This document shows positions 6,702-53,415 of a stretch of 54,509 nucleotides of DNA, piece after piece. The stretch spans positions 1 to 54,509 of the forward strand of contig CAYIVX010000001.1 of the NCBI GenBank assembly GCA_964366925.1, read 5' to 3'. The notes beneath the pieces are model-generated. The model had not been told where the DNA came from. It searched no databases and was given only the letters and a program-made list of their open reading frames with translations. Both the position numbers and the translations under genes were made by a program. The DNA comes from Candidatus Woesearchaeota archaeon. GTDB taxonomy: Archaea; Nanobdellota; Nanobdellia; Pacearchaeales; GW2011-AR1. Numbering within the stretch: the stretch's first letter is position 1; each line of letters starts with the position of its first letter.

Positions 6702-8021
6702 TTAGATTTCTTTTTTAACACTTATTGCTGTTGGGGCTTCACCGCCATGCCAGGTAAATCTAGGACGAACACGGATAGGATAAATTCTTTCAGAATTATC
6801 ATCTAGAATTATAGCTGAACCTTTCATAGATGGGAGTTCTGCCATATTTTTTCTGATGGATTCAAGAAGATAGGTCTGCATGATACTATTAAGTGCTTCT
6901 ATGTCTGGTTGAGCCGTTAGTCTATGGGCGATAACTACATCTGATTGAGTCATAGCATCTCTGTGAATAACTCCTGGCTGTTGTGTTGCCATGACCAGAG
7001 AAATCCCTGGCTGTCTTCCTTCTCTTAGAATTTGGATAAGTGCGTCTGTTGCCGCTGTTTTTTCATTTTCTTCTTTTCTTAGAAATTCGTGGGCTTCATC
7101 AACAAAAAGCCAAACCAGTGGAACTTCTTTTTTTTCTTTTACATTAAGATAATCAATTCCGTGTTGAAGAGAAATCATTTCTTCTTTTTTTCTGGCAAGC
7201 ATTCTTTCATTGAATATTTTTTTACATACTAATCCGATTACTAATGCACGAACATTAAAAGTTCCTATGGAAGAATAACAGCTTACGTCAAGTACTGTTG
7301 TTTCTCCCGGGGATATTAATTCTGAAATTGCTGTTCCTGTTTGTCCTTTTTTGGCAAATATTCCCCAGGTTTCTGCTGCTTCAAAAAGCGAGGCTGCAGC
7401 ATTTCTGTCTTTTTGCTCAGATTGCTTATCTTTCATAATACCTTCAATTATTGTGGTTGTATCAAAATCTTCATTCTCTTCTCTTAGATTAGCAATTACT
7501 TTTTGAATAATTATTGAAATTGGATTTGTAATTTCTAGATTAAAAGTTATAATCCAATCTTCTGCGGCTAACTCTGATGCTTTGATTGCAAATCTATTAT
7601 CCACGGGAATCTGTCGTTTTTCATATTCTTCAAAAAATCCATATGGTGCCCAAACTTTAACAGGCAGATTTTTTGGTTTTAAATTCCATTCTTGTAAAAG
7701 TTCAGAATCTTTTTCATTTTTGTATTTCATTGTCCAAAATATACCCATTGTATCAAAAATTATTGGTGCAATATTTTGTGAAATTTCTTTAGGTAAATCA
7801 CATATTTCTTCAGCTATTGCTCCAAGAGTGTAGGACTTTCCCGAACCGCGCTTTCCTGCAATCATTATAACATGGGAACGTGCAACGTCGAGCCAAATTA
7901 AATTAGAAAGGGAAGTATAATTTCCCATTTTAACATAACCTTTTCCAAGATAGATTAAACCCTCATTACCAAATTTTTTAATATCGGATTTATCTCGTCC
8001 GATAATTATATCATAGCTCAT
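6702..8021 (-). CDS. HerA/FtsK-like P-loop ATPase (DUF87-type)
   Basis: Walker A is AGKRGSGKSYTLG and Walker B is LVWLFVDEAHEFL. Also has REGRQPGISLVMATQQP. 439 aa. Confidence 0.7.
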   Translation of the reverse strand: MSYDIIIGRDKSDIKKFGNEGLIYLGKGYVKMGNYTSLSNLIWLDVARSHVIMIAGKRGSGKSYTLGAIAEEICDLPKEISQNIAPIIFDTMGIFWTMKYKNEKDSELLQEWNLKPKNLPVKVWAPYGFFEEYEKRQIPVDNRFAIKASELAAEDWIITFNLEITNPISIIIQKVIANLREENEDFDTTTIIEGIMKDKQSEQKDRNAAASLFEAAETWGIFAKKGQTGTAISELISPGETTVLDVSCYSSIGTFNVRALVIGLVCKKIFNERMLARKKEEMISLQHGIDYLNVKEKKEVPLVWLFVDEAHEFLRKEENEKTAATDALIQILREGRQPGISLVMATQQPGVIHRDAMTQSDVVIAHRLTAQPDIEALNSIMQTYLLESIRKNMAELPSMKGSAIILDDNSERIYPIRVRPRFTWHGGEAPTAISVKKEI

Positions 8022-12510: not shown

Positions 12511-12576
12511 GAGTTATTATTGTTTTATTGATTATAAAGATTTTTATATGGACTTAATCCTTATTTTAATATCTTT

Positions 12577-12649
12577 AGTCCCGTAAGACAGTGGTCAAGT
12601 CTTCGAGATTCTGAATCTCGCAACCCCGGTTCGAATCCGGGCGGGACTA
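12577..12649 (+). tRNA. tRNA-Gln (anticodon CTG)
   Basis: Manual fold: acceptor AGTCCCG/CGGGACT (A1:U72), D stem AGAC/GTCT, anticodon stem CGAGA/TCTCG with loop TTCTGAA, T arm CCCGG-TTCGAAT-CCGGG, discriminator A. 73 nt. Confidence 0.85.
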
Positions 12650-12766
12650 TTTTTATTCTAAAAATAGTTAGTATTTTAATCGGATTCGAACGCACAGAAA
12701 ATCATCTATTTTCTGAGATTTAAAAACAAGTATATTTTTAAATAATCCGGGCGGGACTATTTTTAT
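12634..12766 (+). repeat. Perfect 23-bp direct repeat of the tRNA-Gln 3' end flanking an 87-bp insert
   Basis: AATCCGGGCGGGACTATTTTTAT occurs at 12634-12656 and 12744-12766. The insert carries hairpin CAGAAAAT-catct-ATTTTCTG (12695-12715) and an inverted 11-nt T-arm fragment, CGGATTCGAAC. Confidence 0.8.
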
Positions 12767-12783: not shown

Positions 12784-12945
12784 TTATACTCTTATATTAA
12801 AATCTTTGGCATCTCTAATCTTTTTATCGTGTTGATCCATTTTTCCACTTTGAAGACAAGCATAACAAATATGAATTGTGCCATCTTTTTCTGTTATTTG
12901 AAATGTATTTTTACATTTTGGACATAATGCGTTTTCTGTTGTCAT
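12784..12945 (-). CDS. Small Zn-ribbon protein (53 aa, not in ORF track)
   Basis: Own translation: MTTENALCPKCKNTFQITEKDGTIHICYACLQSGKMDQHDKKIRDAKDFNIRV. It has a CxxC...CxxC pair. Confidence 0.45.
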   Translation of the reverse strand: MTTENALCPKCKNTFQITEKDGTIHICYACLQSGKMDQHDKKIRDAKDFNIRV

Positions 12946-13094
12946 ATTAGTTTTACAAGAGGTGACTATTTAAGTATTTTGTAAGTGTAGGAGATAGGAT
13001 GATTTAAAAAATCAGGGATTTTTTAACACTTCTTCTTAAAACTAATCAACTTCAATAAGAAGTTTTAAAAACATTCTAAAATTTATTCTATCAA

Positions 13095-13167
13095 GCCCCC
13101 ATAGTCTAGAGGCCAAGGACGATTCCTTCTCAAGGAATAAACCCGGGTTCGAATCCCGGTGGGAGCA
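13095..13167 (+). tRNA. tRNA-Glu (anticodon CTC) with a C3:A70 acceptor mismatch
   Basis: Manual fold: GCCCCCA/TGGGAGC acceptor, D GTCT/GGAC, anticodon stem ATTCC/GGAAT with loop TTCTCAA, T arm CCGGG-TTCGAAT-CCCGG, discriminator A. Confidence 0.85.
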
Positions 13168-16575: not shown

Positions 16576-17733
16576 TTAGATATCCTCCTTTATCTCTAAA
16601 TGTAAGCTATCCGCTACCATATCGAACTTTTTAATATATTTTTCAAGATTTGCCAGCCGTTCTTGCATTATAACCTTCTCTTTCTCAGATTTTTCGAGTC
16701 TTTGCTCAATTTCGGTTTTTGTTAGATCTAGAAGCATATCTTCCTGACTTATCGTATCCTTCATTCCCAATAATTCAGAATAATAATGGATTTTATCGCT
16801 TTTTTTCCAGCCAAATCTATACTTTAAGGCAGATTCAGACTTATATCTTGGAAGCCAGTAACAGCAAGCATTATGTCTAAAATCGTATAAAGTTAATTCA
16901 GAATATTTCTGCCCAGCAGGGCTTTTTCCTTCACCCAGTACTCTCGTAGCTAATCTTTGGAGATACTGATTTGTTCTGCTCGGGCTTATTTTAAATAGAT
17001 AATCTTCAGAGTTTAATTGGAAAACCTTGATATATTCTTTGATTAATTCTGAACTTAACATTAGCTTAATTCTTCTTCCGAAAGTTTTGCTGATTTCATC
17101 TCGTATATTAAGCTCTTTGAAATCATTAAAGAAGTCTGATACTTTTATATTCATTAATTCTGTAGGCGCCCTAATTCCCGTATCAAAAAGAAACATCATT
17201 AAGACTTTATAATTAAATTTAGCATTATCACATAATTGCTTGACCTGCTCTTCAGTTAAATATACCCAATCAGGTTTATCTCTAGAAGTATCAAGATCGA
17301 TAGTTATATCGGGTATATCTTTCCCTTTTTTCCTATTAACTTTTTGATACCAGTGCCAGAAAGCCTTGAATGCTTTAACATAATCCGCAGTTGCTATAAA
17401 CACCTCGCCATTAAGCCTTCTTATCTCTCCATAACGCATTCCTGAGAAAAAGCCCATTAGTTGTTCTTCACTAATATCTATCACACAATCAAGATCGTGC
17501 AATTCCTTAAATTTCTTTGAAAAGAAAATAAGTCTATTCTTTAAAGAATTCAGTCTTGAATGGCTTCTAGACCCTTTAACACTTTCTTGAGCAATATTTA
17601 ACCCCTTTTCCATATCGTTTAGATATTGAAGTATAATTGCAGAATTTTTTTGACTTACACTTGCAATATTCTGCTGATTTTTATCTTTCCATGCAAGATA
17701 CATTTCTTTATGTTTGTACGGGTCTATTTTCAT
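16576..17733 (-). CDS. Tyrosine recombinase / integrase
   Basis: Has FDTGIRAPTEL (box I Arg), LYDFRHNACCYW (H/R box) and SDKIHYYSELLG (candidate catalytic Tyr). 385 aa with a coiled-coil C-terminus. Adjacent to the right att-like repeat. Confidence 0.85.
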   Translation of the reverse strand: MKIDPYKHKEMYLAWKDKNQQNIASVSQKNSAIILQYLNDMEKGLNIAQESVKGSRSHSRLNSLKNRLIFFSKKFKELHDLDCVIDISEEQLMGFFSGMRYGEIRRLNGEVFIATADYVKAFKAFWHWYQKVNRKKGKDIPDITIDLDTSRDKPDWVYLTEEQVKQLCDNAKFNYKVLMMFLFDTGIRAPTELMNIKVSDFFNDFKELNIRDEISKTFGRRIKLMLSSELIKEYIKVFQLNSEDYLFKISPSRTNQYLQRLATRVLGEGKSPAGQKYSELTLYDFRHNACCYWLPRYKSESALKYRFGWKKSDKIHYYSELLGMKDTISQEDMLLDLTKTEIEQRLEKSEKEKVIMQERLANLEKYIKKFDMVADSLHLEIKEDI

Positions 17734-17840: not shown

Positions 17841-17978
17841 GGTGGGGGCATTTTGCTGCTAAAGAATGAAGCAGTAGGCCACCAAGGTTCAGAAACTGAA
17901 GATTTCTGACTCTCCAACTCTCGCGAGTTGAAGACAATAAAAATTCAGAAATAATTTTTTAGCTGGTGGGGGCATTAA
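17841..17978. repeat. Duplicated tRNA-Glu 3'-end fragment GGTGGGGGCATT flanking a 112-bp insert
   Basis: The 12-nt repeat occurs at 17841-17852 and 17965-17976. The insert carries hairpin TCAGAAA-ctgaaga-TTTCTGA (17889-17909) and hairpin CAACTC-tcgc-GAGTTG (17915-17930). Confidence 0.6.
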
Positions 17979-22252: not shown

Positions 22253-22437
22253 AACAAAACCTATTTATACCTTGCTCTTTTCGATATTAAATGTAGGAGG
22301 GATAAGTAAAAAACTTAAATCAGCCCTTCGGGTTCGTGTAGAAAAGTTTTTTATATCTCAGAAAATCCTTGATTTTCTGATCTGTTATTTTTGTAACTAA
22401 ATTTAACAACAAAAATAACAAAACCTATTTATACCTT
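22253..22437 (+). promoter_or_regulatory. Perfect 21-bp direct repeat AACAAAACCTATTTATACCTT (TATA-containing) flanking a 143-bp insert
   Basis: Copies are at 22253-22273 and 22417-22437. The second lies ~25 nt upstream of the acdA ATG (22461). The first lies ~30 nt upstream of the family-2 element. Confidence 0.6.
22303..22392 (+). ncRNA. Family-2 structured element, copy 1 (candidate small RNA or terminator module)
   Basis: Helix TAAAAAACTT/AAGTTTTTTA encloses CAGCCCTTCGGGTTCGTG. Then comes hairpin CAGAAAAT-ccttg-ATTTTCTG and the tail CTGTTATTTTT. About 78% identical to 33264-33349 (minus strand), with compensatory changes. Confidence 0.45.
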
Positions 22438-25999: not shown

Positions 26000-28900
26000 A
26001 TGGGGTGGAGTTTATTTGACGAAAAAGGGGATATTTTGCCCGCAAAGGTTTTTAGTAATGGAAAAAATCAGGAAGATGTTGTTCTAGAAGTAGTTAATGA
26101 AATAAAAAAAGGTACAAAAATTATTTTTATTCATGGAGTTTGTGGTAGCGGGAAATGTCTTGAAAAGAATACCCGAATATTCTGTAAACCGAAGGGGATT
26201 GACTACTTGGGTTATTATCCAATTTCTCAACTTGTTGGAAAAGAGGGAATTATAGTTTCGCTGGATAAAACGGGTAATATGGTTGAAAGTAAATTTACAA
26301 ATGTCGTAAATAGTGGTAAAAAGAGGCTATATAAAATAAAAACAAGAACGGGTAGAGATTTGCAATGTTCGATTAATCATCCGTTCTTGACAATTACGCG
26401 TAATGGTTTAGAATGGTTACCTTTAGAAAAATTAGATAAAAATTCCTATATTTGTTTGCCAAATAAGACCTCTCTTAAAAATCAAGCCTCTTTGGACAAA
26501 AATAAGATTAAGATTTTAGCTCATTTAATTGCTGAAGGTAAATTAGGCGATAAAAATGGTTCACCTAAATATTATCAAAATCCATTGACTGATTTAGAAG
26601 TAAGGCAAGATTATGAAAATGCATTAAAGAAATTATTTCCCGAAGGACAATTAAAGAGTTCTTCTCCTTGTGAGGTCACTATGGCATTTAATAATAAAGA
26701 TACTAGATTTGGAACTACTAATAAACTTAGACTTTTAATTAGAGAGTTTGGTTTAGACGGCGGGAAGTCGGGGGATAAGTTTGTTCCGCCAATTATTTTT
26801 AATTTAAATGATGCTGATGTTGCCTTGTTTTTAAAAACCTTATTTTCAGGAGATGGAACTATTTATGAAAAAAAGAGTCATGCAAGAGAGAATTCTACGA
26901 TTATTGTAGAATATTGTTCTATTTCAAAAAAACTTATACAAGATGTTTCTATGCTTTTAATGAGATTCGGAATACAACACACGATAACTCCCAAAAAATT
27001 TAGAGAAGATAAAAATTATTCTTGGACTATTCATATCTCCAATCAAAAACAAGTTAGAAAATTTATCAAAAATATTGGTTTTATTGGTAGAAAACAGGTA
27101 TTTGCTGAAAAAGTATTAGGAAGTTTACAAGATCATAAATTTACCAACATAGATAAAGTTCCAAGAGTTATAAGAGAATATTTGAAAGATAGGGGTTATA
27201 CTTATAATGATCTTTATCGATTCTTGAATTATACTGAATTTGAAAAATTTAAGGATGTGGGATTTAAGAAAATTTTGAATAAGAAATTAGTAAGTTGTCC
27301 TTTTGTGTTTAGACAACAGAAAATAGACTTTTTGAGAGAACATATAACAAAAATAAAGGAACATATTAAAGACGCTACTCCTGATTTTATATGCAGTGAA
27401 GATATTTTTTGGGATAGATTAGATAAAATTGAATTTATTGGAGAGGATGAAACTTATGATTTGGAAGTTCCACATTATCATAATTTTATTGCTGATGGAA
27501 TTATTGTGCATAATTCGGCTATCGCTCTTAATATTGCTCGTGAACTTGGTAGGGCTAGTATTGTTGTTCCAATAAAGAATCTTCAGAGACAATATGCTGA
27601 GGATTATACTAATAAAAAATATGTTCTTAAAAAAGATGGCAAAAAATTAAAAATATCCCTGATTACGGGTAGAAGAAATCATATTTGCCCTTACTTGAAA
27701 GACAATCAAAAAGATATTTTATTAAGCAGAATTAGAGAGAAAAATGCAAATCTTACAGATATTTTTTCAGGAGTTAATTCTTCTAATTTTCATCGAAAGA
27801 ATGCAGAGGAGGATGATTCTTGTGATAATTATCTTATCCCCTGTAAAATTGAAATAAAAAGCAAAAATATTTCTACACTTAAGAAATATTATAATGAGAA
27901 TCCTGATAGGAAAGATAATTCGGAACTAGATTTGAAGGTTGCTAAGAGATTTGCGGTTGCTCCTGCTTGTCCTTATTGGAATCCTATTTTGCCTACTGAA
28001 ATGAATGTCAAGAACGATTGGTTAAAAAAAGAATATAAATCTGTTGCAGGGAGTCATACTATCTATGTTAGAAAAGATGGATGCCCCTATTATCGACAGT
28101 TTGAAGCTTATGCGGACTCTGATGTAATTATCTTTAATGGCGATCAATATATACTAGAAACTGCACTTGGAAGAAAGCCTTCTACTGATGTTGAAATAAT
28201 TGATGAGTGTGATGAATTTTTAGATAATTTTGCACTGGAGGGATCAATAAATATTACTAGGTTGAGAAATGAATTGTCCGGAATTATGTGTAGTGATGAT
28301 GCTCAAAGAAAACTTGTTGATGGGCTTAATGAGGGGCTTCTTGAAATTCTTGAAGAGTCTTCTAAGAATATTGATAAAAAAGATAATATTCTTGAAGTTA
28401 ATAAAACTAAAGTTTCTGAATTAATTGCCGCACTTGTTAAAAGTGATGTTTTTGAAATTATGAGTGATGAAAGTTATTTGGAGCATTGTGTTGAAGAAGC
28501 AAGAAAATTTTTTGATGTTATGGATGAAAGTTTTGTTAATTATTATAAAGATAAAAATCGAGGAGATATCTTTGTTAAACTTGTTACTATTAACTTAGAT
28601 AAGCTTCTTTCTTCTCTTATTGAAAAGAATAAGGCTTTTGTTTTTATGTCTGGAACTCTCCATAGCAAAAGAGTTTTAGAAGAAATTTTTGGATTGAAGG
28701 ATTTTAAGATTATTGATGCAGAAACTTTTAAGCTTGGAACTATTAAAAAACTTAGAACAGGTTTAGAGCAGGATTTAAAATTTGATAATTTTGAAAAGAA
28801 GGTAGTTAGTCGTGAAAAATATTTATTGGCCTTGGATAAGTGTGTTGAGATTGCTAAAATTCCTATTCTTGTTCATGTTAGTGCATTTAATGATTTGCCT

Positions 28901-53117: not shown

Positions 53118-53165
53118 TTAGCCAAACCTTTTAAAATACTGATTTCTCCTAATAATTAAACATAT

Positions 53166-53292
53166 GAGCCCTTAGCTCAGCCCGGTTAGAGCACTGCTCT
53201 TATAAGATTAAATTTCGCTAGAAATTTATTTTTCCTTCCTTCGGGAAGACTAAGAAAGGCAGGGGTCCCACGTTCAAATCGTGGAGGGCTCA
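53166..53292 (+). tRNA. tRNA-Ile (anticodon TAT) with a ~52-nt canonical-position intron (53205-53256)
   Basis: Manual fold: GAGCCCT/AGGGCTC acceptor, D GCTC/GAGC, anticodon stem CTGCT/GGCAG (one G-U pair) with loop CTTATA|intron|A, T arm CCACG-TTCAAAT-CGTGG, discriminator A. Intron ends are +/-2 nt. Confidence 0.7.
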
Positions 53293-53415
53293 TACAAAGA
53301 CCTCCAGTAGTTCCCGCGAAAAATGAAATTTTTCGGGGCCCAGAAAATCAGTAGATTTTCTTGGCCTTAACACTCAACTCCCTATAATAAAATTTATAAA
53401 GAATGGTTTCTTTTT

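Follow-up and report, generated by a model that had tools for sequence, protein, structure and literature searches.

The closest described counterparts of the locus reported here are integrative elements that occupy the 3' ends of tRNA genes. Cis-mobilizable elements (CIMEs) and the tandem accretion of integrative elements at such ends have been reviewed (PMC5704250). The cassettes described below resemble CIMEs in several respects: they lack an integrase, their borders are attL/attR-type repeats taken from the 3' end of the target gene, that gene remains intact, and islands arriving later integrate there, too, and come to lie next to the older remnant. CIMEs, however, are kilobase-sized decayed bacterial islands, whereas the cassettes at tRNA ends considered here measure 60-150 nt, are highly structured, form recurrent families, affect about one fifth of the tRNA genes in the source genome and its relatives, and keep a distal repeat identical to the tRNA. 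The ssrA-targeted islands of Dehalococcoides are reportedly an example of tandem accretion. Cryptic integrated elements of Thaumarchaeota are said to have left tRNA gene fragments behind in archaea. The 21-kb island PYG1 lies in tRNA-Gln of Pyrococcus yayanosii, with 44-bp repeats (PMC9897764). As in such archaeal elements, a partial copy of the tRNA 3' end forms the far border here and archaeal tyrosine integrases come into question as agents, but the fragments of those elements flank 9-23 kb of gene-bearing DNA.

Two further groups of mobile DNA invite comparison. The REP/BIME, ERIC and MITE families resemble the DNA between the tRNA copies, which likewise consists of short hairpin modules with covarying stems and more than 100 intergenic copies. 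In contrast to these families, the duplicated gene end is the defining feature here; a short target duplication of fixed length and convincing terminal inverted repeats are both missing, and no Y1 transposase (Y1_Tnp/RAYT) was found in the source genome, which is 71% complete. Mobilisation of the hairpins by an IS200/RAYT-type enzyme was rejected on the last of these grounds. Casposons leave a 14-15-bp duplication of the tRNA 3' end. They share with the present cassettes the insertion at the extreme tRNA 3' end and the duplication of its last ~14 bp, but the repeat length is variable here, and Cas1, which drives casposons (PMC5137440), was not found in the 71% complete source genome and occurs in four of 81 genomes of the family, so casposon-type insertion was ruled out. 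In the literature searched, no description was found of mini-cassettes of ~100 nt with hairpin modules and inverted T-arm pieces.

The source organism is a groundwater DPANN archaeon (Pacearchaeales), and its genome is a metagenome assembly of 1.0 Mb in 87 contigs with 31% GC, contig 1 of which is the window, the whole 54,509-nt stretch analysed here. All genomes compared are metagenome assemblies, with G000 denoting the source genome and G001-G005 the congeners; the closest genome, G002, was taken whole, and the relatives are labelled Pacearchaeota, Woesearchaeota or Nanoarchaeota. On the plus strand of the window, a tRNA-Gln(CUG) gene without an encoded CCA occupies 12576..12650 (ARAGORN; Rfam tRNA, 60.6 bits). 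Its 3' end, from T-loop base A58 to 6-7 nt beyond the gene, forms the first copy (D1, 12634..12656) of the 23-mer AATCCGGGCGGGACTATTTTTAT, which comprises the T-loop AAT, the 3' strands of T stem and acceptor stem, the discriminator and TTTTTAT. The second copy (D2, 12744..12766) is identical across all 23 nt and lies 110 bases downstream on the same strand, with 87 nt in between. The perfect duplication around an 87-bp insert that the sequence-only reading had reported is borne out, since exactly two copies occur in the window and none would be expected by chance (100 shuffles). D1 belongs to the intact tRNA-Gln and ends in a T5 terminator, so that a normal tRNA should be made without D2. D2 is followed by native downstream sequence, TAGAATTATACTC in G000, which aligns with GAGAATTATAATC in G003 and lies beside the stop codon of a convergent 53-aa zinc-ribbon gene (12784-12945, minus strand).

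The insert holds no ORF and hence no recombinase gene, and structured filler is all that lies between the two copies. A trailer hairpin, GACTATTTTTA / TAAAAATAGTT (12645..12669, plus strand), pairs the last bases of the tRNA with the first bases of the apparent insert through a stem of 10-11 bp (12645-55 with 12659-69), the descending strand of which falls within the 87 nt. Further along, at 12681..12691 on the plus strand, lies CGGATTCGAAC, an inverted piece of the T arm that matches the reverse complement of the 11 nt at 12629-12639 exactly. This piece can form 12 bp with the T loop and D1 or, alternatively, pair with the initial 6 nt of D2. Two hairpin modules complete the insert, namely hpA (CAGAAAAT-N5-ATTTTCTG, 12695..12715) and hpB (ATTTAAAAA/TTTTTAAAT with loop CAAGTATA, 12718..12743), both on the plus strand; the hairpin and the inverted 11-nt fragment claimed earlier for this insert are thus present at 12695-12715 and 12681-12691. 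Direct reading of the cassette ends gave no convincing terminal inverted repeats, the sole likeness being an AT-rich match of eight in nine positions that is explained by the two internal hairpins. A repeat search aligns the sequences after D1 and after D2 at 81% over 48 nt; a longer original duplication was considered, but 16 of 25 matching nucleotides after the two copies is too weak in AT-rich DNA to prove one.

The hairpin modules are not peculiar to this site. They occur in more than 100 copies dispersed through the intergenic DNA of the genome, with conserved structure and variable stems. The hpA type is a genome-wide module, carried among others by ~83 copies of a three-hairpin 'leader' element of ~100 nt that ends on start codons, and of the 26 places in the genome that match the hpB pattern, about 18 are convincing copies. 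Hairpins of the hpA and hpB types are also seen nested in the loop of the first hairpin of three-hairpin elements (G000 contigs C8, 18500-18660; C10, 14330-14420; C50, 1590-1760; and others), an arrangement suggesting that the loops of pre-existing hairpins receive modules in the same way as the T loop of partial tRNA copies does. Downstream of an intron-containing tRNA in the window (53165-53293), a pair of hairpins, CCCGCGAAAAATGAAATTTTTCGGGG and CCAGAAAATCAGTAGATTTTCTTGG, lies at 53293-53370, and the same pair is found on contigs C29 and C32.

Comparison with relatives shows that the tRNA-Gln site is recurrently occupied and that its content varies. All five congeners have a cassette behind tRNA-Gln and, beyond it, a duplicate of the tRNA's own 3' end; three cassette types occur among G000-G005. 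The alpha layout (G000, G001, G004 and G005) consists of the inverted T-arm piece, hpA, hpB and the copy; the beta layout (G002) of a direct T-arm piece, hpB, hpA and the copy; and the gamma cassette of G003 measures 61 nt. G005 carries two different stacked cassettes with three copies of the repeat. An alpha-like cassette is found at tRNA-Gln of the distant genome L043, and empty sites, which had been proposed as a check, exist: the site is empty in the genera represented by L036, L038, L042 and L045 and in L147, the one relative found in a single metagenome scan. The tRNA-Gln body of L147 equals that of G000 except in the acceptor stem and is followed, with no copy, by a hairpin GCTATTTTC/GAAAATAGC, the counterpart of the trailer hairpin behind D1. 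Across the alpha alignment of four species, D1 and D2 show matching substitutions at three variable positions, apart from one exception in G001, and in the closing stem, hpA and hpB 93% of the pairs are kept with six double-sided changes, a level reached by none of 500 shuffles. These parallel changes and the covarying, conserved stems indicate that the distal copy at tRNA-Gln is not a passively decaying scar.

Copies of tRNA ends downstream of tRNA genes are a general feature of the source genome. When the last 12 nt of a tRNA were sought on the same strand within 300 nt downstream with at most one mismatch, seven of 40 tRNA genes had a copy of their own 3' end, against none of 40 upstream, on the reverse strand or at +2 kb, and looser criteria raise the number to about 12 tRNAs. 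In G002 the set comprises the tRNAs for Met, Gln, Lys-UUU, Leu-UAG and Tyr and one more; the tRNA-Leu(UAG) site is polymorphic, occupied in G002 and empty in G000. Repeat lengths of 11, 12, 13, 15, 17, 18, 21, 22, 23, 39, 49 and 53 nt were seen, the three longest being identical repeats in G002, G048 and G000 contig C6, respectively. A gamma family of 62-70 nt, made up of a left hairpin with the loop TTGAGCAAAGCGAAA, then GACGGCAC and an AT hairpin, lies behind tRNA-Gln (G003), tRNA-Ala (G000 contig C2) and tRNA-Glu(CUC) (G003 and G005), each copy being flanked by 11-15 nt of the local tRNA end. As a separate observation, many tRNA genes of the lineage have, within 5-40 nt downstream, a piece complementary to their T loop and to the 3' strand of their T stem, even where a distal copy of the 3' end is absent; tRNA-Phe on G002 contig C6, tRNA-His and tRNA-Val(UAC) on G000 contig C3 and tRNA-Met of G003 are cases in point. 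The trailer would therefore be able to fold back on the T arm.

At least seven genes of the source genome encode tyrosine recombinases (PF00589), and some of them lie in islands at tRNA genes. The window itself contains tRNA-Glu(CUC) at 13095..13167 (plus strand), the 3' end of which, GGTGGGAGCATT (13158-69), is the proximal repeat of an island of ~4.7 kb with a tyrosine integrase of 385 aa (16576..17733, minus strand; Pfam PF00589, E 2e-9). Beyond the island lies locus 2 (17841..17976, plus strand), where the displaced original 3' end of tRNA-Glu is followed by a trailer hairpin (TGCTGC..GCAGTA), hairpin modules and a second copy. Its 12-bp repeats GGTGGGGGCATT, at 17841-52 and 17965-76, bear out the claim that this insert, too, is bracketed by direct repeats, and GGTGGGAGCATT at the end of tRNA-Glu(CUC) is a third copy with one mismatch. 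The trailer hairpin of locus 2 is native, standing directly behind the intact tRNA-Glu in G002. The succession of the 17841 copy, the native trailer hairpin, the modules and the 17965 copy indicates that the island, which sits between tRNA-Glu(CUC) and the 17841 copy, integrated into a tRNA-Glu gene already carrying the mini-cassette and pushed the locus-2 cassette outward. Rfam searches down to E = 5 gave no known RNA or hidden tRNA at locus 2.

Similar islands occur elsewhere in the genome. A 14.4-kb island on contig C24 (1-14500) has the repeat GGCAGGAGCAT, one copy of which completes a tRNA-Glu cut by the contig start, and two integrase genes, one near each end. Its repeat and that of the tRNA-Glu island, GGTGGGRGCATT, have the same boundaries as the repeats of gamma mini-cassettes at tRNA-Glu (G003 and G005), tRNA-Gln (G003) and tRNA-Ala (G000). 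On contig C14 (7300-13300), an island of ~5.4 kb with an integrase of 417 aa separates an intact tRNA-Lys(CUU) (12902-12978, minus strand) from a displaced 45-nt 3' half of it (~7484-7530). Behind this half lie a beta cassette and another copy, so that this island, too, integrated into a tRNA gene with a mini-cassette already in place. At tRNA-Lys(UUU) on contig C6, 'unit 1' is the orthologue of the single unit in G002, and 'unit 2' shows ~96% identity with the hairpin pair at the displaced C14 fragment; the repeat is common to the two tRNA-Lys genes. Upstream of tRNA-Lys(CUU) on C14, repeated 5' halves of the tRNA, each followed by CTGCATAGCGAACTCGGCATCC, surround a run of N. The islands at tRNA-Glu and tRNA-Lys have repeat boundaries like those of the gamma and locus-2 cassettes, and no integrase is tied to tRNA-Gln. 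No likeness of cassette ends to island ends was seen by eye when the two islands on C1 and C24 were compared with alpha, beta and gamma. One reverse transcriptase of 345 aa was found (G000 contig C11, 21947-22561; locus L178, 1288-2325, minus strand), which scored best against group II intron reverse transcriptases, far below the model cut-off, and may, as a guess, be an enzyme of the diversity-generating retroelement (DGR) type; a second, partial one lies at the start of contig C54. Retro-mobility of the cassettes was considered and set aside, as nothing links the reverse transcriptase to them.

The 23-bp copies at tRNA-Gln can be explained as att-like boundary repeats of a miniature cassette without genes and without an integrase, moved and homogenised by recombination, an account in which we place middling confidence. 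In this account the tRNA-Gln cassette stands at the lower extreme of a range of sizes that reaches up to the integrase-bearing tRNA islands of the same genome. Several lines of evidence argue for boundary repeats of this kind: the enrichment of copies over controls in which none occurred and their downstream, same-strand direction; the different content or emptiness of the same tRNA-Gln site among relatives; the distal copy, which tracks the local tRNA in the alpha alignment; the boundaries shared by island repeats and gamma mini-cassettes; and the geometry, in which D2 is followed by native downstream sequence. Accretion is suggested by the islands at tRNA-Glu in the window and at tRNA-Lys(CUU) on C14, because both separate a tRNA from a displaced fragment with a mini-cassette; exchange through a shared repeat is suggested by the near-identical hairpin pair at the two tRNA-Lys loci; and array dynamics by exact 91-nt tandem units at tRNA-Met of the distant genome L055 together with the identical repeats of 39, 49 and 53 nt.

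The events leading to the tRNA-Gln layout can be envisaged as follows. DNA carrying a copy of the tRNA 3' end, probably together with the trailer hairpin, would have recombined with the gene at that point in a Campbell-type reaction, either catalysed by one of the tyrosine integrases of the genome or dependent on short homology, by which the intact tRNA would have been regenerated and a second copy left distally. Cassettes are found stacked, shared between repeat-sharing loci, tandemly duplicated and absent, and stacking, exchange, duplication and loss by recombination would account for these states. As the tRNA evolves, slippage or recombination from repeat to repeat would then keep the distal copy the same as the gene end. 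Apart from the hairpin and T-run terminators that it places between two convergent genes, the cassette itself probably does little.

Several observations weigh against att-like boundary repeats. At 87-143 bp the cassettes have no coding capacity, and it is implausible that recombination would act on a double-stranded circle of ~100 bp. Cassettes of a family with conserved ends, such as gamma with its left hairpin of loop TTGAGCAAAGCGAAA, stand behind different tRNAs with different repeats, which conservative site-specific recombination could produce only through parallel decay of related islands. The repeat at tRNA-Gln starts in the T loop, at A58, whereas those of the two integrase islands examined start at ~63-64; no integrase can be assigned to tRNA-Gln; and similar duplication-flanked insertions exist at sites other than tRNA genes, namely at locus 3 and on contig C40.

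The tiny size of the cassettes, the families that cross tRNAs, the repeat start in the T loop and the non-tRNA cases make a MITE-like mechanism a serious rival, even if we regard it as rather unlikely. A non-autonomous element composed of hairpin modules would insert at gene boundaries with long target duplications of variable length (9-50 nt), and its staggered cut would span the gene end, so that the tRNA stays intact. Besides the modules in more than 100 copies and the same small cassette families behind different tRNAs, each with local flanks, clean presence and absence of duplications away from tRNAs speak for such an element. At locus 3 (22253..22437, plus strand), a TATA-containing promoter segment of 21 bp is perfectly duplicated (22253-73 and 22417-37) around a 143-nt insert (22274-22416), as the sequence-only reading had noted. 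Of this insert, the right 106 nt (22311-22416) represent a member of the ~100-nt three-hairpin leader family, and the left 37 nt (22274-22310, with GGAGG) are unique in the genome. A small transcript running across the inserted element could start from the first promoter copy. G001, G002, G003 and G005 have a single copy of the promoter segment and no insert, and with this site empty in four relatives G000 gained the 143 nt and the 21-bp duplication in a lineage-specific insertion. On G000 contig C40 (7620-7728), the perfect 14-bp repeat AATGGCAAAAATAA, which includes the start codon, encloses an insert of 95 nt that belongs to another repeat family (GGATGCAGG..CCGCAGGTGG..GGTCTGCCGGATG..CCGGCAAGGGG), and the orthologous site in G002 is empty. 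This insert creates an upstream ORF of 31 codons, the stop of which overlaps the real start (TAATG), and its repeat family also occurs on C2 at 28823-28875.

A range of repeat lengths from 11 to 53 nt, however, is incompatible with one staggered cut, and the MITE-like mechanism has further difficulties in the lack of convincing terminal inverted repeats and in that neither a Cas1/casposase nor a Y1/RAYT transposase was found. The trailer hairpin behind D1 looks native, and beta-type cassettes have their hairpin pair inside a longer tRNA 3' copy without a duplication of its own. Among 36 full-length leader elements, no copy-specific flanking repeat was detected, similarity within copies (8.2 of 13) equalling that between copies (8.3 of 13; p = 0.82), so that a rule by which hairpin elements carry copy-specific target duplications and an inverted target copy found no support. 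The near-identical hairpin pair at two tRNA-Lys loci sharing a repeat is predicted by recombination through the repeat and not by a transposase that makes duplications. A miniature element duplicating 12-23 bp of its target had been proposed for the three inserts of the window; a simple target duplication of fixed length does not agree with these findings or with the occurrence of one family behind different tRNAs. A single element at the three loci was likewise ruled out: one hairpin type is indeed common to them, but BLAST finds nothing beyond this palindromic hairpin of ~30 nt, the limit of similarity that had been named as counting against the proposal. The other suggestion, scars of integration and excision, holds in part, in that the insertions are recurrent and an integrase island lies between the tRNA-Glu and locus-2 copies.

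No mobile element at all is needed if template switching at the quasi-palindromic T arm and slippage create inverted and direct copies of tRNA ends and then expand, contract and homogenise them, an origin that seems improbable to us. The match of inverted and direct copies to the local tRNA in several species would follow naturally. The cassette at tRNA-Met is orthologous in G000 (GGCGGGATTT) and G002 (GCAGGATTT), each with inverted and direct local copies, and both the distal copy and the inverted piece match the T stem of their own genome (CCCGCC/GGCGGG in G000, CCTGCC/GGCAGG in G002); the tRNA-Gln of G004, with CAGGATT, is a comparable case. Inverted T-arm pieces without a distal copy (tRNA-Phe on G002 contig C6, tRNA-His on G000 contig C3) and the exact tandem units also accord with template switching, which leaves unexplained, however, the conserved cassette families across tRNAs and genomes, the near-identical hairpin pair at the two tRNA-Lys loci and the association with integrase islands.

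Still less probable, in our estimation, is a functional RNA device, in which the distal copy would replace the first 3' end in read-through transcripts while the inverted piece sequesters the first copy, serving as a switchable 3' end, a back-up terminator or a processing signal. The predicted fold of the read-through RNA (-60.9 kcal/mol, against -51.7 kcal/mol for tRNA and trailer separately; z-score -6.35), in which the acceptor and T stems are completed by D2 and the inverted piece pairs with the T loop and D1 through a 12-bp helix, is consistent with such a role, as are the pairs kept in four species and the way in which D2 and the inverted piece track the tRNA; the fold, however, derives from the same sequence. 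Against a device of this kind stand the T5 terminator of the first copy, the differing content between congeners, and the sporadic layout, since tRNA-Gln lacks it in L147 and several genera, and at tRNA-Met a full or partial distal copy is present at about five of 26 readable Pacearchaeales loci, most being empty. There is also no bulge-helix-bulge motif at the would-be junctions, the 5' junction lying inside the continuous 12-bp helix without 3-nt bulges, and a T-loop intron or a split tRNA was ruled out on this ground and because the first copy already gives a complete tRNA.

Folded single-strand hairpins mimic a double-stranded recombination site in the attP of CTX phage and in the attC of integrons. 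By analogy, a hairpin made of the inverted T-arm piece and the tRNA-end copy would stand in for the double-stranded target, and a host Xer-like or island integrase would insert ~100 nt of structured DNA at tRNA T loops, the cassette bringing a replacement 3' end and a terminator. That the cassettes are mobile as folded single strands, of DNA or derived from RNA, or else that the read-through RNA is a tRNA with a switchable 3' end, strikes us as very doubtful. An assembly artefact or collapsed strain variation, conceivable in a metagenome assembly as fragmented as this one, has a negligible chance of being the explanation and is not credible, because the same tRNA-Gln architecture is present in five independently assembled congeners and recurs at many other tRNAs.

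Rather than a curiosity of a single gene, the tRNA-Gln layout is best understood as a small-scale form of the mobile islands that target the ends of tRNA genes. Partial tRNA copies are usually taken for the borders of kilobase-sized islands, whereas here they border ~100 nt of structured non-coding DNA, and in annotation the tRNA-end copies of these genomes are neither pseudo-tRNAs nor island borders. Should the cassettes prove capable of independent movement, no smaller integrative elements would be known. Terminators and hairpins in intergenic DNA are exchangeable as cassettes between loci, and in DPANN genomes duplications of gene ends also flank toxin-antitoxin cassettes and islands, which makes tRNA-end copies a simple marker for the recombination activity that shapes these genomes.
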